Made by a program: the position numbers and the translations under genes
The notes under the pieces: generated by a model
What the model was told of the DNA's origin: nothing
Seen by the model: the letters and a program-made list of their open reading frames with translations, nothing else
Database searches by the model: none
Part shown: in pieces, positions 18,287 to 63,453 of the stretch
Layout: every line of letters starts with the position of its first letter
How positions within the stretch are numbered: the stretch's first letter is position 1
Assembly (NCBI GenBank): GCA_043822705.1
Contig: JBDRBK010000060.1
Coordinates: 26,529 to 90,528, forward strand
Direction of reading: 5' to 3'
Length of the DNA stretch: 64,000 bases
Source of the DNA: Fidelibacterota bacterium
Lineage (GTDB): Bacteria; Fidelibacterota; Marinisomatia; Marinisomatales; TCS56

Positions 18287-19138
18287 TCATTTAACTAACG
18301 CTTTCCTCTTTCGCAATTGGCGCAAACCAATCCCGGTCGCTAAGAAGAGTAGGATACTGATGAGTCCGTTAACCGGTGAAATCAGCCAGTCCGTACCCGG
18401 TATGATCTGAATATGACGTTCCGTAAAAAGCTGGTTGAGAAAGGCATCCTCCACCGTATGCATCAAAACTGCCGGCCAGATTGAATTAGTTAACAGGCGG
18501 ATCTCTCCATATACAATTCCCCATACAATCATTACTACGATTGATAGGGGAATAAAGATTGCCAGTTTCAATACGGTAAAGTTTTGGAGAATGGCTGGAT
18601 CCAAATAAAACAAATAGTATGGAATATGCCAGGCTCCCCAAACGAATCCAACGATCAAATGGCCGATATAATCATTCATGCGCAGGGAGTAGACCTTGGG
18701 GGCGAGGTATCCACGCCAAGCAGCCTCTTCAAAAATATTCTTAATGAATTGCGAGAGCATGCCCAAAGCGAAAGTCTGCAGGATCAGCCAAAGTGTGTTC
18801 TGGGAGAAATTGGGAAATGAAATCAGGCCTGAACCTCGACCGATTATCAGGACAATTATTGTTAGCAGGGGATACACAAGCAGGGCGATGATGTACCACG
18901 GCAGATTCCCCTTAAAATTTGGTTTGATTCCAAAGTCTTTCCAGCCATCACCGGCAAACGACCTTAGTAATACTGAGACCAGAAGTGGCGTGATTAGCCA
19001 CAGGAGCATTCCCAGACTTTCCGAAGAAGGATTACCCATCAGTATATCCAATCCTCGCCCAATCCAGCCAATCGCCAGCACGGCGATAATGAAAATCGCC
19101 AGGTTGCGAATCGTAGTCTTATTATTGGGGAAACTCAT
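18287..19138 (-). CDS. CPBP (CAAX protease/Abi) intramembrane metalloprotease
   Basis: FEEAAWRGYL, WGAWH and SIWPAVLMH motifs. Lower GC than neighbours. Confidence 0.9.
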   Translation of the reverse strand: MSFPNNKTTIRNLAIFIIAVLAIGWIGRGLDILMGNPSSESLGMLLWLITPLLVSVLLRSFAGDGWKDFGIKPNFKGNLPWYIIALLVYPLLTIIVLIIGRGSGLISFPNFSQNTLWLILQTFALGMLSQFIKNIFEEAAWRGYLAPKVYSLRMNDYIGHLIVGFVWGAWHIPYYLFYLDPAILQNFTVLKLAIFIPLSIVVMIVWGIVYGEIRLLTNSIWPAVLMHTVEDAFLNQLFTERHIQIIPGTDWLISPVNGLISILLFLATGIGLRQLRKRKALVK

Positions 19139-19485
19139 TATTTATGACTCCTTTAAGATTGAATAATAATTATCTGAGGTAAATTATCTGACCTGGATAG
19201 GGTTTTTGTACAAGGAATTAAGGTGATAACATTTGGCATATTAAAATATCGTATCACCCTGGACAGGGAAAATTAAACAGCTGATTTCAGCAATTCAAAT
19301 GGAATGTTAGCTATGATTGATAATGGTCTACTCTTTGATATTATTTCCGTTAATAATTTTCCACCCAAATATTAAAGCGCCAAATCATCTGGTAACCATC
19401 ATCGATGGCCGAAAGGATACCTTCCCGGTCACACAATTTCGTTTTCTGATATCAAACCGGGTTTGGTAAGCTACTGCGCTCCTTT

Positions 19486-51587: not shown

Positions 51588-54500
51588 ATGTATATATCCG
51601 AATTGAAAATCCAGGGATTCAAGACATTTGTTAAAAAGACTTCGCTGACCTTTGGTGAGGGCATCACCACGGTGGTCGGACCAAATGGTTGCGGCAAGAC
51701 CAATATCGTTGATGCGATCCGCTGGGTGCTTGGTGAACAGAAGACCAGCGTGTTGCGGGGCGGGAAATTGGAAGATGTGATTTTTAACGGGGCGGAAGGC
51801 CTGAAGCCGCTGAGTATGTGCGAGGTTTCTTTGACCGTGCATAACAACAAGGGCAAACTGCCGATTGAATATAACGACGTGGAAATCACCCGTCGCGCCT
51901 TCCGTGACGGCGAAAGCGAATATTTCATTAACCGCACCTTATGCCGGCTCAAGGATATTCATGACCTGTTCATGGATACCGGCATGGGCGCCGACGCTTA
52001 CTCAGTAATCGAACTGGGGATGATCGAAAGCATCCTGTCCGAAACCCGCGACGACCGTAAACACATGTTCGAAGAGGCGGCCGGGATCAACAAGTACAAA
52101 CTGGAACGGCGCTCGGCACTGCGCAAATTCGATGCCGTGCGGGCGGACCTGGAACGGATCAACGATATTGTCGGCGAGGTCGAATCCAAGGTTCATAATC
52201 TGGCATTGCAGTTGAAGCGGTTTAAGCGGCACGCCGGCCTGGTCGAAAAATTGCGGGAAAAGGACCTGGCGTTGGCCTTTCTGCGCATCGATTATTACAA
52301 AGGACAGGCTTTACCGCTGGAACAGCGGATCGCCGAATTAAAGCATTTGCGGGAATCCACCGTGACCAGCGGTAACCGGCAGGATCAGGAGCTGCAGCGG
52401 TTAAAGGAAATGTACCGGACCCAGCGCGAAGAGCTGGATGGAATTAAAGGCCGCCTGGCCGAGGCCGAAAGCGAGCGCGAGGAAACCCGCAACGGTATTC
52501 TGGTACGCACGGAACAGCAGCGTGCCGCGGGCGACAGTATTACCCGGCTGGAAAACGAGACGACCAATATCATCGCCAAACAGGATGAGCTGCGCCGATC
52601 AGTCGCGAACTTCACGGAAAACGTCCTGGAAATCGATCCGCAGATTGAAGAAAAACTGGAATTGTACCAGCAGAAGAAGGCGGAATTCGAACAGGCCGAA
52701 GACCAGTATAAAAATTCCCGGGAAAAAGTACGGGAGTTGCAGGCGGAACGCTGGCAGCACCAGCAAAAAGCCAGTGAACAGAATTCCCTGCTACAGCGTA
52801 CCGAACAGATGCTGGCCGATTTCAGCCAGCGCCGGCAAAAAATCACCGACCGCCGGGAAGAACTGCTTCACCTGCAAACCGCCGACAAGGATGTCCGGAA
52901 TGGCCTGGAGGCCAGCCAGCACGACCTGCAGGCGCAACTGGCTCGGAGACAGGCTGCTTTTGAGCAAGAGGAACTGGCCTTAAACCAGTACCGTGAGCGC
53001 CGGCAGGAACTGGAACAAAATCGCCAGTCGGCCCGCAACCGGTTGGAGACATCGGATTCGCAACTGCGCTTCTACCAGGAACTGATTGAAAAGAGTGAGG
53101 GCTATCCGGCCGGCGTTCGGCAGGTGCTGGCTCGGCGTCAGGATTATCCCGGTGTGCTGGGCAGTCTGAGCGAACTGATTTCCGTCCCCGATGAATATGG
53201 TTCCGCGCTGGAAAATGCCCTGGGTCCCCTGGCCTATTGCCTGGTGGCCGAGGATCGTGCCAGCGCCTTGGAAGTATTAAACCTGGCCGGGAAAAACAAG
53301 GCCGGACATCTGACGATTCTGCCGTTGCAGGAAATTGCCGCGCTGCCGGCCCGCGACCGAGCTACACCGGCAGCTGGTCAGCCGCTGGTACGGGCGCTTG
53401 ACCTGGTGATGGCCACCGAGCAAATCCAGCCGCTGGTCCGCTACCTGTTGGGCGACCTGTTGCTGGTTACCGATCTGGCGGCAGCCCTCCAGGATCGTGC
53501 CCTGGCCGGTTGGGACCTGCTGGATCGTGAAGGGCGTTTTGCCGGATCGAATCAGATTTTGAAAAATTCGACCTCCGCGGCTGGTTCCGGTGTAATCGGC
53601 CGCCGGCAGAAAATCACCGATTTGGAGCAGCAAATTGCCCAGACCAACGAGGATCTGGAGCGTCAGACCAGAGAACTGCAGGAACTGGACACGCTGCTGG
53701 AAAAACATCAGCGATCGGTTGGGATCATCCGGGCCAATATCGTCAGTCTGTCTGAACAGGCATCGACTGCTGAAAACCAGTTGATCCGTAACCAGTACCG
53801 CCAGTCCCAGACCGATGAGGCGCTGACCGGTATCAAGCAGGAAATCGATGAACTGACGGCGCAAATCCTCGCGTCCGAGGCAGCCCTGACCGGCTTACAA
53901 CCAGCGGTGGCGGCTTTCACCGGCGAACTGGCGGATATCGACCAGAAGATTACCGCCGCCAACGAGCAATCGGACCGGGGTCGTCTGAACCGTGACAACC
54001 TGAGCCGGCAGGTTCAGGATCTGCGGATTGAAACCATGGGTCTGGAGAACCAGCGCGAGAAGCTTCTCTTCCAGAAACGCACGGCCGACGAGACAATCGC
54101 CGAATTGGACAATCGTCAGGTCGCAATAAAGGCCGAAATCGAATCGCTGCAGCAGCAGCGGGAAACGTTGTCCGCCGAGATGGCCAGCGCCGAAAAGGCA
54201 CTGGAATCGATCAATTCCAGGATCAAGCAGCAGCGCTCGGTGCTGGATCTGAAACAGACTGTTTTTGACGAAACCTACCAGTCGATTGACGACCTGGAAG
54301 CGCGGATGCGGGCGGAGCAGAAGGACCGTGAAGCATTATTGGAGGAACTGCGCGATTGTGAAGTCCGGGGAGCGCGTTATCGGGAGCAGATTCGTACGAT
54401 CCGGGAACGGATCGAAGAAAAATACCGCACCGTTGTTCCGGATGGCTTAATTGTGGATGAAAGTGAAGAGGAACTGGTCCGGGAAATCGACCGGTTGCAA

Positions 54501-55112
54501 CATGGGATCGATGCCATCGGACCGATCAATATGGCGGTTCAGGCCGAGCACACCGAAGAAGAAGAACGGCTGCAGATTATCTGCGCGCAACGCGCTGACC
54601 TGATCGCATCGGAAGAAAATCTGCGCGAAACGATTAAGAAAATCGACCGCGTCGCCCGCAAGCGCTTTCTGGACACCTTTACCCAGATCAAGTCCAATTT
54701 TGAGCGGATGTTTGCCATGTTTTTCGAAGGTGGTGAAGGCACACTATCGCTGGCTGGTGATCCCGATCCGCTGGAAGCCGATATCGCCATCTTCGCCCAG
54801 CCGCCGGGCAAGCGCAACCAGTCGCTGCGGGTTTTATCGGCGGGTGAAAAAGCGCTCACGGCGATCGCCCTGTTGTTCTCGATCTACCAGGTCAAGCCCA
54901 GCCCCTATTGCATCCTGGATGAAGTCGATGCACCGCTGGACGATGTGAATATCCGTAAATTCACGCGGGTGCTGCACAAATTCAGCGATGAGACCCAGTT
55001 CATCGTTGTGACCCATAATAAGCTGACGATGGAGGCGGCTAATTACCTGTATGGGGTGACGATGGAGCGCAAAGGCGTTTCGAAACTGGTGTCGGTGAAA
55101 TTCGAAGACTGA
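51588..55112 (+). CDS. smc: Chromosome segregation protein SMC
   Basis: GPNGCGKTN, long coiled coils, hinge, then LSAGEK, LDEVDAPLD and VTHN motifs. Confidence 0.96.
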   Translation: MYISELKIQGFKTFVKKTSLTFGEGITTVVGPNGCGKTNIVDAIRWVLGEQKTSVLRGGKLEDVIFNGAEGLKPLSMCEVSLTVHNNKGKLPIEYNDVEITRRAFRDGESEYFINRTLCRLKDIHDLFMDTGMGADAYSVIELGMIESILSETRDDRKHMFEEAAGINKYKLERRSALRKFDAVRADLERINDIVGEVESKVHNLALQLKRFKRHAGLVEKLREKDLALAFLRIDYYKGQALPLEQRIAELKHLRESTVTSGNRQDQELQRLKEMYRTQREELDGIKGRLAEAESEREETRNGILVRTEQQRAAGDSITRLENETTNIIAKQDELRRSVANFTENVLEIDPQIEEKLELYQQKKAEFEQAEDQYKNSREKVRELQAERWQHQQKASEQNSLLQRTEQMLADFSQRRQKITDRREELLHLQTADKDVRNGLEASQHDLQAQLARRQAAFEQEELALNQYRERRQELEQNRQSARNRLETSDSQLRFYQELIEKSEGYPAGVRQVLARRQDYPGVLGSLSELISVPDEYGSALENALGPLAYCLVAEDRASALEVLNLAGKNKAGHLTILPLQEIAALPARDRATPAAGQPLVRALDLVMATEQIQPLVRYLLGDLLLVTDLAAALQDRALAGWDLLDREGRFAGSNQILKNSTSAAGSGVIGRRQKITDLEQQIAQTNEDLERQTRELQELDTLLEKHQRSVGIIRANIVSLSEQASTAENQLIRNQYRQSQTDEALTGIKQEIDELTAQILASEAALTGLQPAVAAFTGELADIDQKITAANEQSDRGRLNRDNLSRQVQDLRIETMGLENQREKLLFQKRTADETIAELDNRQVAIKAEIESLQQQRETLSAEMASAEKALESINSRIKQQRSVLDLKQTVFDETYQSIDDLEARMRAEQKDREALLEELRDCEVRGARYREQIRTIRERIEEKYRTVVPDGLIVDESEEELVREIDRLQHGIDAIGPINMAVQAEHTEEEERLQIICAQRADLIASEENLRETIKKIDRVARKRFLDTFTQIKSNFERMFAMFFEGGEGTLSLAGDPDPLEADIAIFAQPPGKRNQSLRVLSAGEKALTAIALLFSIYQVKPSPYCILDEVDAPLDDVNIRKFTRVLHKFSDETQFIVVTHNKLTMEAANYLYGVTMERKGVSKLVSVKFED

Positions 55113-55287
55113 TTAACTATAGATCGCTAAATCTGCCGTTTTTGCTGGCAAATTACTGCACTATACGCGTGAAAACGGAATTGAACTTATCCGTTAAGAT
55201 GGTGATTTCGACACCAGGGAAAACGATTTTGGATAAAATCAAAAGATAAAGGAACAGGCGGGAGTGTATAACTATAAGTTATTAATC

Positions 55288-55316
55288 TTGCTATCTTTTG
55301 AGGCATTAGCTATATT
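55288..55316 (+). promoter_or_regulatory. Candidate Pc-like promoter facing the cassette array
   Basis: TTGCTA-N17-TATATT, the same -10 as other promoters in the window. Confidence 0.45.
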
Positions 55317-55656
55317 CACGCACAACTGCTGCGACATATCGTACATACTGTTATTATTCACCAATCCTGCTGTTCAATTCCGCGTAACTTGTTTATCCGG
55401 CCCGCTTGGTGTTACTGAGGGGGCGGAGCTATGATAAAAAAGTAATAATGTTATGGCAATAACCATCGGATGCGTGCGGTGTTGCGAACAAAAACGGGAG
55501 TTACAGTCTCGTGTTCAGGAATTTTATCCGTCAGAGTTTGTCAACTAAAAGCTCATATCCAAGTCGGATATGCATATAATAGACCGACCGAGATACATGT
55601 AGCATTTGGAAAGGTTAGAGGGGCAAAGTACTGATAGGTGAATGGCAGAGGAGAAT

Positions 55657-56133
55657 ATGAACAATAAGACCAGCAATTTCATAAAAATAATCATCATTTT
55701 AGCTGTCGTAGTGATGATGATTAACTGTAGTTCGGAAAAGTCACAAAATATAGATCTTGTGAATCAGTACTATTTTGCGATGATGAATGGTGATTCGAGC
55801 ATTGCAGAATCGATACTCAGTAGTAGTTTCACTAAAATCAATAATGGGAATCGTGAGAAAGTTATTGGGCCCGAAGTTCTTCACAAATCAATCCGGGATC
55901 ATCAGAGTCGAAATTCTGAATATGCTTATATCTTAGAAGAGATTTTCTCAGATAAGCAATTTGTTGCTGTACGCTGGCGATGGAAGTCTATTAACATCAA
56001 AACAGGGACCCCCAGAGAAATGGATATCCCCGGCTTGGCTATTTTCCGAATTGACTCCGGAAAAATTGCTACTCAATGGCAAAGTTTTGATATGGTGATG
56101 TTCGAAAAGCAACTTGCTGGTGATGACAAATAA
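55657..56133 (+). CDS. Cassette 1: SnoaL/ester-cyclase (NTF2-like) protein, probable lipoprotein
   Basis: Signal ending MINC. VAVRW and GLAIFRIDSGKI..W...D motifs. Confidence 0.8.
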   Translation: MNNKTSNFIKIIIILAVVVMMINCSSEKSQNIDLVNQYYFAMMNGDSSIAESILSSSFTKINNGNREKVIGPEVLHKSIRDHQSRNSEYAYILEEIFSDKQFVAVRWRWKSINIKTGTPREMDIPGLAIFRIDSGKIATQWQSFDMVMFEKQLAGDDK

Positions 56134-56203
56134 TCAGTGTTGTGTAGTTTTCGGATATTGAATTATCGATTTGATAATGAGATAAATTTGATGTTAAAAA
56201 GCG

Positions 56204-56328
56204 GTCTAACAAATGCTTAGAGCTGATCCACACGAGGGGTAGTGCAAAACGAAAATTATGTGGATGGATTCAATTATCGAATATGGCGAATCTGTATTGG
56301 GATGCAGCTCAAGCCTATAGCGTTAGCC
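56204..56328 (+). repeat. attC site 1 (125 bp)
   Basis: GTCTAAC ... GCTTaGAGCTG / CAGCTCAAGC ... GTTAGCC, with one extrahelical base. Confidence 0.9.
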
Positions 56329-56378
56329 AGCAAATATTTTTAATTGAAATTAAAGATTTATCAAAAATGAGATGAGAA

Positions 56379-56981
56379 ATGTTAAATTATAAAAACAGAT
56401 TCATTTTAATTATTTCAGCATTGATTTTTTCTTTATCATGCAGTGATGATCCTACATCTTCAACGAATATGACTCATGAAACCGGTACTTTTACTGATAT
56501 AGACGGCAATGCTTACCAAACTATAAAGATTGGCAATCAGTGGTGGATGGCTGAAAATTGGAAAACAACTCATGCAACAGATGGATTAATTTTGACAGGG
56601 ATTTTCGCTTATAATGATAATGAAAATAACGTAGGTGAATATGGCCGACTTTATACTTGGCAAGCAGCATTAGATGCTGAACCAGAAGGCTGGCATCTTC
56701 CAAGTACAGAAGAGTGGAATATTTTAGAAGCTTCACTGGGATCAGATGCCGGTGCAAAATTAAAGGTAGATGGAAACAGCGGATTTAGTGCCAAATTAGG
56801 AGGAAGTAGAAACTATGATGGCGGATATGCTGGTATTGATTATTGGGGGATGTATTGGACTTCCACAGTCTATACTAACGATCATTCATATATTATAAAT
56901 TTGTTTTCTGACAGGCCTGATATAGTCCAATCAGGATTAGGTATTATCGCGGCTATTTCTGTTCGATATGTTAAAGATTAA
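56379..56981 (+). CDS. Cassette 2: FISUMP (Fibrobacter succinogenes major paralogous domain) lipoprotein
   Basis: SLSC lipobox. DIDGNAYQTIKIGNQWWMAEN, YGRLYTW, PEGWHLPS..EW and SVRYVKD motifs. Confidence 0.88.
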   Translation: MLNYKNRFILIISALIFSLSCSDDPTSSTNMTHETGTFTDIDGNAYQTIKIGNQWWMAENWKTTHATDGLILTGIFAYNDNENNVGEYGRLYTWQAALDAEPEGWHLPSTEEWNILEASLGSDAGAKLKVDGNSGFSAKLGGSRNYDGGYAGIDYWGMYWTSTVYTNDHSYIINLFSDRPDIVQSGLGIIAAISVRYVKD

Positions 56982-56992
56982 TAAGAACAACA

Positions 56993-57098
56993 GGCTAACA
57001 CGCGTATGGAGCCAACCGGATCAGCTGTCCGGGTCTCCGAGAAGTGTGTTGGTAAATGTTAATAAAATGGCCGGCGGCTCATACGCCAGCCGTTAGGC
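56993..57098 (+). repeat. attC site 2 (106 bp)
   Basis: GGCTAAC ... GCGTATGgAGCC / GGCTCATACGC ... GTTAGGC. Confidence 0.9.
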
Positions 57099-57131
57099 AT
57101 TTTAAGAAAACAACAATTATTAGTTACTCAA

Positions 57132-57446
57132 ATGAAATACAACCACTTCGGTATCCCAACAAGCTCTTGTTTTGAGGATGAAATCGATTTGCCTAATCTC
57201 AAGATGACTGTGTCTGATCATGAGAATAATCCATACGGGATTCAATGGCAAAGATATTGGGAAAATGCCCCCTATCCTGATCTTGTCAAGTCTGTTCCAC
57301 ATGTTGCGTTTGAAGTTGATGATTTACAAAAAGAATTGAGTGGTAAAAAGATCATTATCAAACCTAATAGTCCGAGCGATGGTTTGTTGGTCGCATTCAT
57401 AGAAGTTAATGGTGTGCCAATTGAACTAATGCAATATACAAAATGA
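57132..57446 (+). CDS. Cassette 3: VOC/glyoxalase-like protein
   Basis: HFGIPT, PHVAFEVDDL and G.PIEL motifs. Confidence 0.8.
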   Translation: MKYNHFGIPTSSCFEDEIDLPNLKMTVSDHENNPYGIQWQRYWENAPYPDLVKSVPHVAFEVDDLQKELSGKKIIIKPNSPSDGLLVAFIEVNGVPIELMQYTK

Positions 57447-57477
57447 TTTGAGTAAACTGTGGTCTTTCGCGAAAAAT

Positions 57478-57608
57478 GCTTAACAACCACTGCATCGGAC
57501 GCAAATAGCGGGCTTTTAATTTGCCAAAATGAAGATTTTTAAACAGGAATTGATAATAGACCAACTAACGCCTGGCCAAGTTGCGCCCGGTGAGTTAGAT
57601 CGTTATAC
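57478..57608 (+). repeat. attC site 3 (131 bp)
   Basis: GCTTAAC ... ACTgCATCGGACGCAA / TTGCGCCCGGTGAGT ... GTTATAC. Confidence 0.87.
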
Positions 57609-57663
57609 CCACGAAATAGTCAAATTTAAAATGATGAAAAATAACCTAAAGAGGAAATTAACG

Positions 57664-58296
57664 ATGTATTATTCAAGAATAACAATGATCATTTTATTAT
57701 CAGTATTTATGGGATGTTCGGATAATTCTGTAAATAGTGACAATCAAAGTGACAATCAAATTGATGTCATTGGGGATGAAACGTTTGAAAATGGAATTTT
57801 AACCGATGTGGAAGGTAATACGTATTCAACTATTCAAATCGGGGACCAGCTATGGACTGCTGAAAACTGGGAATGCACACACTCTACTGATGGCAATATT
57901 CTTGATGGTGTTCACCCATATGATCGTAACGATACCTACATTGAAGAGTATGGAAGATTATACACATGGGAAGCTGCTAATGATGCTTGTCCCTCCGGAT
58001 GGCATTTACCGAGTAATAATGAATGGCAGGTGCTGATTAATGCGGTCGGTTCAAGTCCCGCCGATAAATTAAGAGAGGGAGGGAGTTCGGGATTAGACAT
58101 TAAATTGGGTGGTCGCCGAACAGAAAGCGGCAGTTATGGCTACGTGGGACAAGTCGGAATATATTGGACGGCCGATCAATCAGATGCAACTCATGTTACA
58201 GTAAAATTGTTTGCTTTAGGCGAGATAAATGTTATAACAGATAACACGCCAAGGGCTGGTGAATTATCTGTAAGATACATCAAAGATAGTAATTAG
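57664..58296 (+). CDS. Cassette 4: FISUMP lipoprotein (paralog of cassette 2)
   Basis: ATG at 57664 after GAGG, FMGC lipobox. DVEGNTYSTIQIGDQLWTAEN, YGRLYTW and CPSGWHLPS motifs. Confidence 0.88.
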   Translation: MYYSRITMIILLSVFMGCSDNSVNSDNQSDNQIDVIGDETFENGILTDVEGNTYSTIQIGDQLWTAENWECTHSTDGNILDGVHPYDRNDTYIEEYGRLYTWEAANDACPSGWHLPSNNEWQVLINAVGSSPADKLREGGSSGLDIKLGGRRTESGSYGYVGQVGIYWTADQSDATHVTVKLFALGEINVITDNTPRAGELSVRYIKDSN

Positions 58297-58372
58297 GTTT
58301 TTTAGAATGACAGCAGTATGTAAGGAAAGTCAAACAAGTTTTAAGGCATGTATCTTAATTAAGTAAGGGTAG

Positions 58373-58502
58373 GTATAACAATAGTATCAAACCGACAAAA
58401 AACGCGTGCGTTTTTTGTCAGGGAATTGAAACTCGGTGAAGTTCGGTGGTTGGTAAAAGTGACTTGCCGTCACCTTTTTGCAGGTTATACTCACCGTTAT
58501 AT
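58373..58502 (+). repeat. attC site 4 (130 bp)
   Basis: GTATAAC ... AGTATcAAACCGACAAAAA / TTTTTGCAGGTTATACT ... GTTATAT. Confidence 0.85.
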
Positions 58503-58705
58503 GTGAGGTTTTTATTCAATATTTGAAAGGATAAGTTGTAATGACCAGTAAAACAAAAATCAGAATGGGCTTCACTAAAGCTCTTCTTTATTTTAGGCAG
58601 TGTAATGTTGAGTTATTGGCGATGCCATACTAATGAGTAGTGCTCAGCAGATAGAAATGATGTTATATTATAATGCTAAATTAATAAGGAATTGAGAGGT
58701 CAAAT

Positions 58706-58900
58706 ATGGGAACACAAGTGAACCATTTTTGGACAAATATAGCAGTTGGTGTGCTTGGTCTGTTTGTGGGGATTGATAATCTCTTGGGATGGATGAGTGA
58801 TAGTTCTTTAACACAAGAACTAGTAATTGGCAGCATATGTACAATACTTGCTACTACTTGGCTTGTTTATGTATTCGTTAAAAGAAACAAAGAGAGTTAA
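58706..58900 (+). CDS. Cassette 5: small two-TM hypothetical protein (64 aa)
   Basis: GAGG RBS, two hydrophobic helices and a basic tail. Confidence 0.65.
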   Translation: MGTQVNHFWTNIAVGVLGLFVGIDNLLGWMSDSSLTQELVIGSICTILATTWLVYVFVKRNKES

Positions 58901-58939
58901 TAATATACTGGATCAACTATTAGTTATTGGGAAAACTAC

Positions 58940-59071
58940 GCATAACAAAAGTATTAACCTGACAAAAAACGCGTAAGATTTTTGTCAGGGATTTTAAACC
59001 CGGTGAAGTTCAGTGGCAGGTTAAAGTTACTGGCCATCGCCTGTTTTTGCAGGTTATACTCACCGTCAGGT
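58940..59071 (+). repeat. attC site 5 (132 bp; GTC core)
   Basis: GCATAAC ... AGTATtAACCTG / CAGGTTATACT ... GTCAGGT. Near copy of attC4. Confidence 0.87.
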
Positions 59072-59131
59072 TTACTTAATCATTCTTGGTTACGGTTGAA
59101 TAAAATCATCCACAATTAACTTAGGAGACAA

Positions 59132-60073
59132 ATGAAAGCAGTCATCTGTACAAAATATGGACCTCCTGAGGTCCTTGAGATTCGGGACATTGAAAAACCT
59201 ACTCCCAAAGACAATGAGGTGCTGATAAAAATTCATGCAACAACGGTGCACATTGGGGATACTAAAATTCGGGGCTTTAAACCCGGACTAGGTAAGTATC
59301 AGGATATTCTTTTTAAGCCCATCATGCGTTTTATGATTGGTTTCAGGGGACCACGTAAAAAGGTATTGGGGATGGAATTAGCAGGGAAAATCGAAGCAAT
59401 CGGAAAGGATGTTAGACTTTTCAAACCAGGAGATCAAGTTTTTGCGGCGACCGAGATGACTTTTGGTGCATATGCTGAGTATAAATGCATGTCAGAAAAC
59501 GGCGTGTTGGCAAAAATACCAGCCAATATGTCCTATGAAGAGGCTGCACCTATTCCCAACGGTGGTATTACAGCATTGCGTTTTCTAAGAAGAGCCAATC
59601 TTCAGAAGAACCAAAGAATTCTTATTTATGGTGCCTCAGGAAGTGTAGGAACCTTTGCTGTTCAGCTCGCTAAAAGTTTCGGAGCGGAGGTCGTTGGGGT
59701 TTGCAGTACAAAAAACATAGACATGGTACAATCACTAGGCGCGGACAAGGTTATTGATTATACGAAAGAAGATTTTACTAAGGGTCCTGAAACTTATGAT
59801 GTTATTTTTGATGCAGTAGGCAAGACTTCCCATTCTTTTTGTAAAAATTCATTGAAGCAAAGGGGTGTCTATCTAAACGTACTCAAGTCCTCGGGAGGAT
59901 TGAAGTTGAAAATTGAAGAGTTAATGTTTCTTCAGATGCTTTTTGAGAAGGGTGAAATTAAATCGGTCATAGATAAACGATTTTCGCTTGATCAAATTGT
60001 TGAAGCTCACAGATACGTCGATAAAGGGCATAAAAAAGGCAATGTGATTATCACCGTAGGAACAAAAACCTAA
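59132..60073 (+). CDS. Cassette 6: NAD(P)-dependent MDR/quinone oxidoreductase-like protein
   Basis: [27 protein letters not shown] and GNVII motifs. The stop TAA lies inside the attC6 inverse core. Confidence 0.9.
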
Positions 60074-60192
60074 CAAAGGCTTAGAGCTGACTCATTCGAG
60101 GGGAAGTACAAGACGAAATTGATGTGGATGGATACAGTGAACATACAAAGCGATGCTTTCTTGGGAAGCAGCTCAAGCCTAAAGCGTCAGGC
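60068..60192 (+). repeat. attC site 6 (125 bp; GTC core)
   Basis: ACCTAAC ... GGCTTaGAGCTG / CAGCTCAAGCC ... GTCAGGC. Near copy of attC1. Confidence 0.9.
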
Positions 60193-60225
60193 GCAACAAA
60201 TAATTCAAATTCATGTGAGGAAATC

Positions 60226-60690
60226 ATGTCTGATTATCTGCCTCCGTTACCAAAAATTCTCATCATCATTCTTATTCAAGTAGCCATTGCCTTGGTTCAT
60301 GTTTTTAGGCTGGGGCAAATTTTTCAAGGTCAAGCCTATAATCTCTACTATAGTTATTTTTCAGACGTCATATTGCCATTTGGAATGTATTTTCTCCTTT
60401 CATTGAACGATGTAATAATTTCAGTTTTCCAAAAAAATATCTGCCTTCCGCCTGGAGAGTGGTATGTTAAAGCCGGTCTCATTTTCACCTTGACAACATT
60501 TGCTGAAATTTGTCAATTCTTTGGAATCGAAGTTTTAGGAGTTACTTTCGATCCTTTTGATATACTGATGTATGGAATTGGTGTTTCAGTTGCCGCATTA
60601 ATCGATGTAAAGGTTTTTACCAAATATCTTGGATTTTGGACAATTCCAAAGAATGGGAACAAAGATCAAGCTGATTTGCGCCTGACATAA
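60226..60690 (+). CDS. Cassette 7: membrane protein (VanZ/DUF2809-like)
   Basis: ATG at 60226 after GAGG. About 4 TM helices, with EICQ..G....G.TFDPFDILMY.IG. Confidence 0.7.
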   Translation: MSDYLPPLPKILIIILIQVAIALVHVFRLGQIFQGQAYNLYYSYFSDVILPFGMYFLLSLNDVIISVFQKNICLPPGEWYVKAGLIFTLTTFAEICQFFGIEVLGVTFDPFDILMYGIGVSVAALIDVKVFTKYLGFWTIPKNGNKDQADLRLT

Positions 60691-60809
60691 CGTGCGGCGG
60701 CGGCGGGGATTCGGCGGCTTCGACAGGCAGGTTCCTACGCCCGAACATTTTTCTACATACTGGCTTTTATCCACACACACCCGTCCGCCGCTAAAGCAAA
60801 CCGTTATGA
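60680..60809 (+). repeat. attC site 7 (about 130 bp; GAC inverse core)
   Basis: GCCTGAC (or ACATAAC) ... GCGGCGGCGGG / CCCGTCCGCCGC ... GTTATGA. Confidence 0.72.
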
Positions 60810-60851
60810 GGTATCAGTACTTTACAGTCAACCATTAAGGAGGTATAAAAT

Positions 60852-62171
60852 ATGAATTCGAAAATTCAACTACGCTGTTTTCTGTTGGTCATATCATTTT
60901 TCATTGCATTTCCAAAAAGCGCAATCTCTCAAGCGAATACCAGTGTTCCACTTACAAGCCAAAAACGATCAGCAATTATCAAAAAAACCGCAGAAATATT
61001 TGCTGAATTTTATCCGATTCCTGAAGTTTCAACAGAAATGATAGGTTATATCGATAAGAGACAAAGAGAAGGCGCCTATGATAAATTCAATAATGTAGAT
61101 GATTTCACATCGCAGTTAACGAAAGATATGCGTTCAAAATCAAACGACGACCATATAAGAGTTTACCCCTATGAAAAAATACCCGATGACCTGGCGGCTG
61201 AAAAGAAATTAGGCTCACCTGAAAATAATTACGGCTTCCAAAGGGTTGAAATTTTACCGGGCAACATCGGATATATCAATCTTACAACATTTATCAATCC
61301 AAAGACAGCGGGATCGACGGCTGTTGCCGCTATGAATTTTGTTGCTCACTGTGATGCATTGATCATTGACCTAAGATTCAACGGAGGAGGCGATGAAGCA
61401 ATGGCTCAATTCCTGAGTAGTTATTTTTTTGATCAAAGTACGCATATGACAGATGTAATCACTCCCAAGGACAATTTAACAGAACAAATATGGACGCAAG
61501 AATGGGTACCCGGATTACGCATAACAGTAGCTCCGATTTATATTCTTATGAATACGTATTCTTACTCTTCAGCTGAAGTACTGGCCTATCAATTGCAACA
61601 GATCCGCAGAGCAAAAATAGTCGGCGAAAAAACGAAAGGCGGGGTACACGGCGTCAGATTTATGAGTTTCCCTGATTTATCAATTAATCTAAAAGTACCG
61701 TATAAAACAGAAATAAATCCTTATTCAAAAACGAACTATATTAACGGTGTTATGCCCGATATTACCGCATCATCGCGAGAGGCATTAATAGTTGCTCATT
61801 CAGAGCTTGCCAAGCTTTTATTGACAACTGAGACAAACATTAAAAAGAAATACCTGCTTGAGTGGATAATTGCCGGTTATGAAATAGACCGGAATCCAAT
61901 CATTCGTAATGATAAAAAACTGGCCGAATACGTCGGTACCTATGCAAATGTAGTCATCACCCTTGATTGCAGTACATTAATGCTTCAGAGAAATGATTTT
62001 AAAAAACAGGCAATGATCCCGATGGGGGACGACCTGTTTAAGTTTAAGGACATAAATGAACAGAAATACCGAGTGCAATTTATACGTGATGATAAAGGCA
62101 AGATAACCGGCTTGTCCGATCTTGACAGTGATGGTGATACATATCCTGTAAAAGAACGTGAACGAAAATAA
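60852..62171 (+). CDS. Cassette 8: secreted S41-family peptidase
   Basis: Signal peptide. ILPGNIGYI, LIIDLRFNGGG, SYSSAE and IVGEKT.GG motifs. Confidence 0.9.
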   Translation: MNSKIQLRCFLLVISFFIAFPKSAISQANTSVPLTSQKRSAIIKKTAEIFAEFYPIPEVSTEMIGYIDKRQREGAYDKFNNVDDFTSQLTKDMRSKSNDDHIRVYPYEKIPDDLAAEKKLGSPENNYGFQRVEILPGNIGYINLTTFINPKTAGSTAVAAMNFVAHCDALIIDLRFNGGGDEAMAQFLSSYFFDQSTHMTDVITPKDNLTEQIWTQEWVPGLRITVAPIYILMNTYSYSSAEVLAYQLQQIRRAKIVGEKTKGGVHGVRFMSFPDLSINLKVPYKTEINPYSKTNYINGVMPDITASSREALIVAHSELAKLLLTTETNIKKKYLLEWIIAGYEIDRNPIIRNDKKLAEYVGTYANVVITLDCSTLMLQRNDFKKQAMIPMGDDLFKFKDINEQKYRVQFIRDDKGKITGLSDLDSDGDTYPVKERERK

Positions 62172-62289
62172 TTGTGCCAAATAACAAGCGCTGGCTGCTG
62201 ACCAAACAAAGATTGAATCTTAACGTATTTGAATAAACTCTGGTGAAATACCTGTATTAGAAGTCCAATTACCATTTTTATTGTGTCAT

Positions 62290-62324
62290 AAAAGGCCGGT
62301 AAACCAACCGGCCTTTTCTTTTTA
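62290..62324 (+). terminator. Intrinsic terminator at the end of the array
   Basis: AAAAGGCCGGT-aaacca-ACCGGCCTTTTCTTTTT. Confidence 0.8.
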
Positions 62325-62814
62325 TCAGTAATCTTTATACGAAGGATACGGATTGTCCCTCTGGTATAACGGCTGTTTATGAAGCACATACATCAAGCCA
62401 GTGTCTATTTAATTGGCCCGACAGGATACTCAAGCCGTTTTTAAAGATTAAAAAATGGTTTTCCCGCTTAAAAAAAGCATTTACCAGACAGTATTGACCA
62501 TTTTACAGCTTTAACAAACGGGCTTTTAGTTTATATAAATGGTTTTATATAGCCTGGTAATGAGGTACATAATTTGACAAATGATTTTACCGTCAGGCTA
62601 AATTGGTTTTATGTTTACTAAACTAATCAATATGAATTGAAAAACCGGTTATCAGGAAAAGACAATTGGTTGTGTAAACTGTAGAATCGTTATTTCTTCG
62701 ATTCTTACAGGACGGATATCGTCCCAATAGCGGACTATGGATTATCGGCAGGCAAATCCACAAATTATTTTCCGAATTCTCTTGTGTTGTATGTTTACGA
62801 TACTGTAATATGTA

Positions 62815-62846
62815 TACGAAATAAGTCATGAATAACGCATTTCGTA
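62815..62846. promoter_or_regulatory. Candidate TetR autoregulatory operator
   Basis: TACGAAAT-N16-ATTTCGTA immediately upstream of the TetR gene. Confidence 0.45.
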
Positions 62847-62859
62847 AATTCGTAAGTTA

Positions 62860-63453
62860 ATGTCACCGGCAGAAAAAACCAGTTCACCAAAGTATGCCCA
62901 ACTGCTAGATACCGCACAGGATTTATTCATGCGCTTTGGCGTGAAGCGGGTTACCGTTGAAGAAATCTGCCAAACCGCCGCCGTCAGCAAAATGACGTTC
63001 TATAAATATTTCAAAAATAAGAATGACCTGGTAATGCGGATAATGGAAAAATTACTGGATGAAGGACAGGGGAAATTTGACCAAATTATGGCTGGTGAGT
63101 TGTCGTTTGCAGCAAAAATGGAGCAGTTCATTAAAATGAAAACTGATTACGGCAGTAAGATCAGCAAGGAATTTTATATTGATTTCATGAATTACTCACC
63201 GGAAGTGCGTGATTTTATCATGGCCCGGTCGCAGCGCAGTATGCAGATTTTGATAGGGGCTTTTCAGAATGCTCAAGAGAACGGGGAAATTCGAGCTGAC
63301 ATGGATCTAAAATTTCTGACTTTCATGCTGAACAAACTGATGGATATTGGCGAAGATCCGCAATTACTGGCGCTGTTTTCCGATACCGGTGAATTGACAC
63401 GGCAGTGGATAAATTTTTTCATGTATGGTATAATTGGTGACAATCCGAAATAA
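62860..63453 (+). CDS. TetR/AcrR family transcriptional regulator
   Basis: HTH motif LF.RFG...VTVEEIC..AAVSKMTFYKYFKNK. Confidence 0.93.
   Translation: MSPAEKTSSPKYAQLLDTAQDLFMRFGVKRVTVEEICQTAAVSKMTFYKYFKNKNDLVMRIMEKLLDEGQGKFDQIMAGELSFAAKMEQFIKMKTDYGSKISKEFYIDFMNYSPEVRDFIMARSQRSMQILIGAFQNAQENGEIRADMDLKFLTFMLNKLMDIGEDPQLLALFSDTGELTRQWINFFMYGIIGDNPK

Follow-up and report, generated by a model that had tools for sequence, protein, structure and literature searches.

An integron cassette array beside smc in a Fidelibacterota genome, with remnants of a co-oriented integrase and scattered attI platforms

The array and its setting

We analysed a 64,000-nt stretch of a Fidelibacterota genome (assembly GCA_043822705.1, contig JBDRBK010000060.1, positions 26,529 to 90,528 of the forward strand), here called the window, in which an integron cassette array lies between smc (51588-55112) and a TetR gene (62860-63453). 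The array consists of eight cassettes with six canonical attC sites, one atypical attC and one half attC. Its eight co-oriented open reading frames (ORFs) on the + strand form an island of 38% GC, against 55% GC for positions 1-55112, in agreement with the eight co-oriented AT-rich genes described in an earlier note on this DNA. Both flanks are assembled host genes. The earlier note had the array inserted as bare cassettes; instead, the leader, an integrase gene stub and the attI site of a co-oriented integron lie before cassette 1. The array is a set of clustered attC sites without an integron-integrase (CALIN) that arose through integrase loss from an integron of the inverted type in a genome of the Marinimicrobia lineage, and elements of this kind are already known. 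The lineage, Candidatus Marinimicrobia, was read from a core gene nearby through its nearest named homologue (74%).

The assembly under study (G000) is 93% complete and 6% contaminated, in 218 contigs. Its bin holds a second related strain: about 250 kb are duplicated between contigs at an identity of at least 80% (85-93% in the inspected pairs). Contigs of G000 are given C-numbers; G002, G004, G013, G022 and G028 are genomes of relatives; and L-numbers denote the loci or stretches compared, such as L071 on C93, L212 on C17 and L211 on C199.

Remnants of an integron upstream of cassette 1

The following features lie at the left end of the array.

51588..55112, + strand: smc, the left-flank host gene; Pfam SMC_N and SMC_hinge; C-terminal 270 aa 82% identical to the smc product of G004
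55401..55430, + strand: leader motif directly 5' of the intI start; 29/30 identical to the intI leader of G004
55431..55495, + strand: decayed 5' stub of intI, first ~28 codons; aligns with the start of G004 intI, with stops and a 22-nt gap
55496..55584, + strand: attI platform; 67/90 ungapped identity to G004 attI
Within attI: GTTAC accessory-like site at 55500-55504, TATCC-N5-GGATA palindrome at 55556-55570, core AATAGAC at 55578
55578..56321, + strand: cassette 1 (likely start; alternative start 55614), encoding a SnoaL-like protein with a lipoprotein-type signal (ORF 55642-56133; Pfam SnoaL)

An intact counterpart is found in G004, a genome of the same family but of another genus, where smc, the leader, intI, a 174-bp spacer, attI and two attC cassettes follow one another on a single strand. 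There intI begins ~220 bp after smc and encodes an IntI of 331 aa that scores 432.7 bits with TIGR02249. In the window the leader, stub and attI block occur in the same order and on the cassette strand, within the stretch of 500 bp that separates smc from the first cassette. The 19-nt core of the leader has an exact match in two of 301 genomes, G000 and G004 only; matches with two mismatches in five other genomes are no more than a reversed control gives. The 3' part of the leader recurs before the 62%-identical IntI of L124. When the 900 nt at the 5' end of the G004 locus were compared with G000 by blastn, only the leader was recovered. The stub matches G004 at 22/29 nt; when shuffled sequences were compared with the whole gene, 8 of 1000 did as well. 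The deletion junction (55490-55495) falls in a short A-rich microhomology, and about 1001 bp are removed relative to G004. At the crossover the core reads AATAGAC in the window and GTTAGAC in G004; GTT is also present in the attI sites of C93 and C199. As the earlier note had reported, neither flank carries a tyrosine recombinase gene; the left flank does hold the intI 5' stub and attI.

The two start candidates of cassette 1, 55578 and 55614, each match its own inverse core at 7/11 positions. The cassette likely starts at 55578, since this position is in register with G004 attI and matches the inverse core over seven contiguous bases; the array start proposed earlier, 55614, would then be 36 nt too far right, even though the counts tie.

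We noted that the leader is kept almost perfectly relative to G004 although intI is gone, and that the adjacent non-coding DNA has diverged. A promoter scan returned 19 sites against 26.9 expected, giving no support for a particular Pc. LexA-domain genes are present in the genome; inspection revealed no SOS-box motif common with the intI leader, and a recA motif search found nothing. Searches with the attI palindrome gave no match in metagenome contigs or plasmids. Among three matches in genome contigs, two are the G004 loci and the third, lacking flanking homology, was set aside, as were all five viral matches, which are motif-only and were treated as chance.

These remnants bear on whether an integron ever resided at the site. 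Cassettes might have landed at an attG between smc and the TetR gene and stacked at attC with no resident integron. In E. coli such attC x attG insertion works efficiently, and small CALINs have been proposed to come from it (10.1101/2022.09.11.507474). The site is moreover empty in G002, where smc, 150 bp and TetR follow one another with nothing homologous to window 55401-55584, and the GTT core at 55614 fits cassette 1 as well as 55578 does. However, an intact integron that follows smc in G004 has homologues of the leader, the stub and the 90-bp attI block, and a CALIN, or a lone attC site without an integron-integrase (SALIN), derived from attG would show no attI or intI remnant at its upstream junction. 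On these sequence comparisons the de novo origin appears largely refuted by the retained platform, and we hold it to be very improbable.

attC sites and cassette boundaries

The attC sites of the array are as follows; scores in bits refer to a covariance model.

56204-56328, + strand: attC1, 125 bp; L box 7/7; spacers 5 and 8 nt; 31.3 bits
56993-57098, + strand: attC2, 106 bp; L box 7/7; spacers 5 and 8 nt; 36.7 bits
57478-57608, + strand: attC3, 131 bp; L box 6/7; spacers 5 and 7 nt; 27.2 bits
58373-58502, + strand: attC4, 130 bp; L box 6/7; spacers 5 and 6 nt; attC5 subfamily (84% identity)
58940-59071, + strand: attC5, 132 bp; L box 7/7; spacers 5 and 6 nt; 17.3 bits, E 0.16
60068-60192, + strand: attC6, 125 bp; L box 7/7; spacers 5 and 8 nt; attC1 subfamily (79%)
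60680-60809, + strand: attC7, atypical, 130 bp; R boxes and an inner G+C stem, without a canonical L box
62179-62203, + strand: attC8, left half only, recognised by sequence; right arm missing, no R/L fold, no covariance model match

IntI inserts cassettes as circles by attC x attI recombination at G^TT, the newest first, and for this reason the start of each cassette matches that cassette's own inverse core. The array bears this pattern: the own-cassette pairing of cores and inverse cores over the eight cassettes has a summed score of 61, equalled by 2 of 40,320 permutations, and all six pairs quoted in the earlier note are present. For the first seven cassettes the own-cassette pairing scores 54 versus 38 for the in-place pairing. 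In place of the seven complete attC sites of 106-132 bp counted earlier there are seven attC-like elements of that size, of which six are canonical and one is atypical; the half site at the end comes in addition.

Sites attC1 to attC6 share one anatomy, R''-5 nt-L'' with an extrahelical base, then L'-spacer-R', with 6-7 of 7 L pairs and a spacer' of 6-8 nt. In three of them the extrahelical base is not the usual bottom-strand G, a change reported to have little effect on integration (PMC2727003). No canonical L box was found in attC7, the best reaching 5/7 over the registers tried; its own-cassette core match is 11/11.

Two checks had been named for these sites, scoring by an attC covariance model and folding of the bottom strands with paired R and L boxes. 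Our covariance model was trained on 19 attC sites from other genomes (two from G004), taken from heuristic picks with a hand-set structure, and its E-values are rough. In the 64-kb window it returned exactly attC1-6, within 4 kb and all on the + strand (E 2e-5 to 0.16), with no match to attC7 or attC8 and none elsewhere. The probability of an R/L-paired bottom-strand fold is 0.72 for attC1, 0.049 for attC2, 0.32 for attC3, 7e-6 for attC4, 7e-4 for attC5 and 0.48 for attC6. The fold is thus predicted to be dominant for attC1, 3 and 6 and rare for attC2, 4 and 5. Bottom-strand folding energies have z-scores of -0.3 to -4.2; energy by itself is weak evidence. A heuristic attC scan gave five matches, where the null averaged 0.28 and none of 60 shuffles had more than 4; it is too insensitive for reading cassette orientation at related intI loci.

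Promoter-like matches of the sigma-70 type lie inside attC4 (58464-58491) and attC5 (59031-59060), with TATACT in the L' arm and facing the next cassette. Taken over the whole region, such matches do not exceed chance.

Loss of the integrase

The assembly encodes three PF00589 proteins, which by their neighbours and profile scores are XerD-like, XerC-like and a phage-type integrase. None of the three passes the cut-off of the integron-integrase profile TIGR02249 (265 bits). Apart from XerC and XerD, tblastn of the relatives' IntI sequences against G000 recovered just an IntI C-terminal stub of 30 residues, on C93. An IntI above the cut-off is present in 14 of 30 relatives, among them 5 of 8 within the family. 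Among the 26 smc loci examined in relatives, intI lies directly downstream only in G004.

We consider it highly probable that a chromosomal co-oriented integron left this array as its stack of cassettes: about 1 kb of intI and its spacer was deleted, the attI core was mutated and the cassettes are likely frozen. No integron-integrase gene lies near the array, as is the rule for a CALIN. A complete integron has an intact intI and an attI with its G^TT core; in the window a stub stands in place of the former and the latter lacks the core. The G004 intI, the window stub and the leader all lie on the cassette strand, the arrangement of co-oriented (inverted-integrase) integrons. Our results support the earlier description, in which cassettes integrated by IntI form a chromosomal CALIN in a poorly studied lineage and include no known genes for resistance or toxin-antitoxin systems.

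Two features on the right side of the array concern its expression.

62290..62317, + strand: predicted intrinsic-terminator-like hairpin 3' of the array
62860..63453, + strand: TetR regulator, the right-flank host gene, 150 bp after smc in G002

The loss of intI probably ran between short A-rich repeats and would have placed the intI leader, together with smc read-through, directly 5' of cassette 1. The first cassettes are likely still transcribed from these sources, because the leader abuts cassette 1 and the interval from smc to the array has no predicted terminator, whereas one is predicted 3' of the array. The hairpin at 62290..62317 is possibly the displaced smc terminator, since a terminator-like hairpin lies directly after smc in the empty site of G002. 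The GTT to AAT change of the core would block new insertion at attI even with an integrase acting in trans. Uptake of cassettes by the array would then have ended, and their loss would require an integrase acting in trans.

Only one sequencing run, an RNA library in the form of contigs, contained any of the stretch, with 7% of its words. Six short contigs aligned to it, five of them at least 99% alike; three map inside cassettes 4, 7 and 8, too little to establish transcription. No excision joints were seen in this single run, which is too sparse to judge excision.

Several points weigh against the integrase-loss reading. The incomplete assembly (93%, 218 contigs) leaves room for an intact intI that was not assembled. 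G004 belongs to a different genus and, in a quick and unfinished smc tree, is not the sister of G000; the empty-site genome G002 is nearer to G000 (support 92, an open fork). Single ancestry at smc would rest on position and sequence similarity. The contig of G004 ends inside its array and its TetR gene lies beside other genes, so that the right flank is not comparable. The intI stub is short (p about 0.008 alone), and the cassette 1 start candidates tie at 7/11.

The array might also still be mobile: a complete intI located elsewhere in the cell, either visiting or missed by the assembly, would excise its cassettes and feed other attI copies, making a distributed integron. The canonical boxes kept in six attC sites fit this, as do the intact GTT cores and 11/11 own-cassette matches at the C93 and C199 attI copies described below, the different genes with which the two strains of the bin end the C93 locus, and the frequency of IntI among the relatives (14/30, and 5/8 in the family). 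Yet no intact intI was found in the assembly, the window attI core, attC7 and attC8 are decayed, and no joints appeared in the single run, which covered the stretch by only six short contigs. We regard a mobile array as unlikely, and loss of the integrase with freezing of the cassettes as the better account.

Related integrases at other loci place the G004-type IntI in a wider setting. Those of L124 and L125 also have an attI-like site downstream, and in a FastTree IntI tree built without Treponema sequences they are nearest to the G004-type IntI (support 0.58). In two other families (L038 in G028 and L040 in G013) intI is directly followed by what appears, from its motif, to be the start of a miaA-like gene. 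In G028 intI lies upstream of smc on the same contig. In G022, of another family, the locus L016 has an AT-rich region after smc with opposite-strand genes and an attC-like end, hinting that the 3' end of smc is a recurrent cassette site.

Relation to known integrons

CALINs were defined in 2016 together with several routes of origin, of which route (iii) is loss of intI (PMC4889954). [quoted passage not shown] It differs from the CALINs treated there in that its origin is demonstrable. The same source gives 95% of CALINs as being 'without recognisable intI pseudogene', with a pseudogene search that needs >50% profile coverage. Our array would count among these 95% although it comes from intI loss, because its stub is far too short for such a search. 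The remnant would thus escape standard pseudogene searches, which bears on the open question of CALIN origin. With the empty, complete and integrase-deleted states of one locus all available, this is an unusually well documented relic.

A close likeness is to the inverted-integrase integrons of Treponema (PMC3607928, Wu et al. 2013), in which intI is transcribed toward attI and co-oriented with the cassettes, and to the intI-less array of T. phagedenis, where intI was lost at a syntenic locus and attC sites remain. Unlike those, ours belongs to a different phylum and probably a different IntI clade, and one can still make out its leader, deletion junction and mutated attI. The Treponema-type inverted-integrase group has been called paraphyletic (PMC4889954), and co-oriented integrases are known elsewhere, including Archaea (10.1101/2022.02.06.479319). 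In the ilvD integrons of Xanthomonas, large deletions have likewise inactivated intI and the arrays are frozen, with further CALINs at several fixed loci of the chromosome (10.1101/2025.06.18.660453). The array relic is ordinary, and the unusual part is the set of satellite platforms in the same genome.

Further attI platforms

A profile of intI tail, spacer and attI matches seven places in the assembly: the array, the minus strand of the window at 19184-19348, and contigs C93, C17, C199, C122 and C140. A G004-only profile recovers the same seven (E 3e-39 to 4e-5), and a reversed-genome control gave no match. C122 and C140 represent the same locus in two strains (91% alike). Other loci thus hold at least five more homologous platforms, including one within the window. 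Since the bin contains a second strain, this number applies to the bin, yet two copies share contig C60.

19184..19348, - strand: second, more decayed platform in the window; nhmmer E 3.5e-12, or E 3.6e-5 with the G004-only profile
L071:5981-8056 (C93): IntI C-terminal stub, intact attI, HNH-domain cassette (weak ZorE-like matches), second cassette
L212:3042-4790 (C17): IntI tail; attI with core GTT to GCC and a 23-nt insertion; one 445-aa lipoprotein-type cassette
L211, C199:13000-17000: intact attI after a gene of the major facilitator superfamily; one 411-aa cassette; complete attC
L213 (C122/C140): attI platform between dedA and tRNA-Pro, in both strains of the bin

G004 carries three platform copies. 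The attI type of G004 and G000 was not otherwise found among 151 genomes of the order, bar two short weak matches. Identity of the attI block among copies is 53-79 of 90, and one or two cassette-like genes come after most satellites. In relatives, the module is absent from the orthologous sites that we examined. C93 and C199 combine intact GTT cores and 11/11 own-cassette matches with attC sites that score with the covariance model; the second cassette of C93 has an attC with a mutated R'. On the contig of the second strain (C126, L239) the C93 locus ends in a different gene, with a junction common to both, and C47 (L238) is an empty counterpart of the C17 locus. The copy at 19 kb sits between a glutamate-synthase-like gene and pntA, where G002 is empty and G004 has an unrelated gene; it is followed by an AT-rich gene of the CAAX-protease family (18287-19138, - strand), at which no recognisable attC was found.

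The edges of the satellites are informative to different degrees. Host DNA resumes at the last attC crossover in three copies, as seen from C17 against C47, from C93 against C126, and in the second copy of G004, where a host stop codon falls within 10 nt of the crossover. Decay prevents placement of the left edges, which could not be assigned to a G^TT; an alignment of them was discarded as over-extended. No target-site duplication was found at the array element or at four other satellites. A duplication is marginal for the 19-kb copy (3/200 shuffles) and clear only at C122, where 36 bp of the dedA 3' end are duplicated and bound the copy.

That three platforms end at the last attC crossover suggests, with less certainty than the account of the array, that IntI itself dispersed them. 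Co-oriented integrons would on this account seed their own docking sites, with IntI moving units that extend from a GWT in the intI 3' end through attI to an attC, and that land at genomic GWT sites, where they capture cassettes in trans. IntI would excise the attI-containing unit by attC x attG and reinsert it at a genomic GWT by the same reaction, each reinserted unit being a promoter-bearing satellite integron that captures in trans. Insertion by attC x attG at GWT, and excision outside the insertion point, have been observed in E. coli (10.1101/2022.09.11.507474, Loot et al.). In those experiments no recombination takes place between attI itself and sites in the genome, and any dispersal here would therefore need to proceed through attC. 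Mobile units containing attI pieces are known as delta-attI-type cassettes (PMC12901181). Unlike the satellites, these precedents are laboratory assays and class 1 and 2 clinical integrons. The 36-bp duplication of dedA and the undefinable left edges speak against dispersal by IntI, which we put forward tentatively.

The satellites may equally be whole integrons that arrived separately, by island or transformation, and whose intI was subsequently lost from the 5' side, with the tail retained for its promoter. The dedA duplication at C122/C140 resembles island-type integration, the attI blocks are only 53-79 of 90 identical, the left edges vary, with no G^TT to which they could be assigned, and the last attC of any integron abuts whatever followed the original attI. 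Six or more independent arrivals of a rare integron type, each losing the same end, are less economical; the attI type occurs only in G000 and G004 among the 151 genomes; and host sequence resumes directly at the last attC crossover in three copies with no extra element DNA. Separate arrival has, in our judgement, close to an even chance of being right, and the two accounts of the satellites are about as likely.

Multiple copies of attI are not described for the Treponema integrons in the available text of PMC3607928, nor, in that of 10.1101/2025.06.18.660453, are an intI tail and attI at the extra CALINs of Xanthomonas, whereas each satellite here carries both. We found no description of multiple or duplicated dispersed attI platforms in the literature searched, and no paper joining integron, attC and Marinimicrobia, although supplementary integron tables could list the lineage. 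If IntI did spread the platforms, integron platforms would multiply without transposons. With six or more attI loci, this lineage would then possess a distributed integron, CALINs would have a natural way to arise, and the rule that a platform cannot move itself would be broken.

Cassette genes

The genes of cassettes 2 to 8 are listed below.

56379..56981, + strand: cassette 2, FISUMP (Fib_succ_major) lipoprotein-like protein
57132..57446, + strand: cassette 3, 104 aa; no family match, VOC-like lead only (Atlas 0.89)
57664..58296, + strand: cassette 4, second FISUMP lipoprotein-like protein
58706..58900, + strand: cassette 5, 64-aa hydrophobic protein; no family match
59132..60073, + strand: cassette 6, zinc-type alcohol dehydrogenase / quinone oxidoreductase family
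60226..60690, + strand: cassette 7, membrane protein; no family match, VanZ-like/DUF2809 lead only (Atlas 0.91)
60852..62171, + strand: cassette 8, secreted-type S41 peptidase

Scans with PADLOC, NCBIfam and Pfam found no defence, resistance or toxin-antitoxin family among the eight cassette proteins, and an Rfam scan of 55000-63000 gave three chance-level matches and no attC or leader family. A lipoprotein- or secretion-type signal, read by eye, is present at the N-terminus of four of the eight proteins. The FISUMP proteins of cassettes 2 and 4 are 41% identical to each other, and the two paralogues carry unrelated attC sites.

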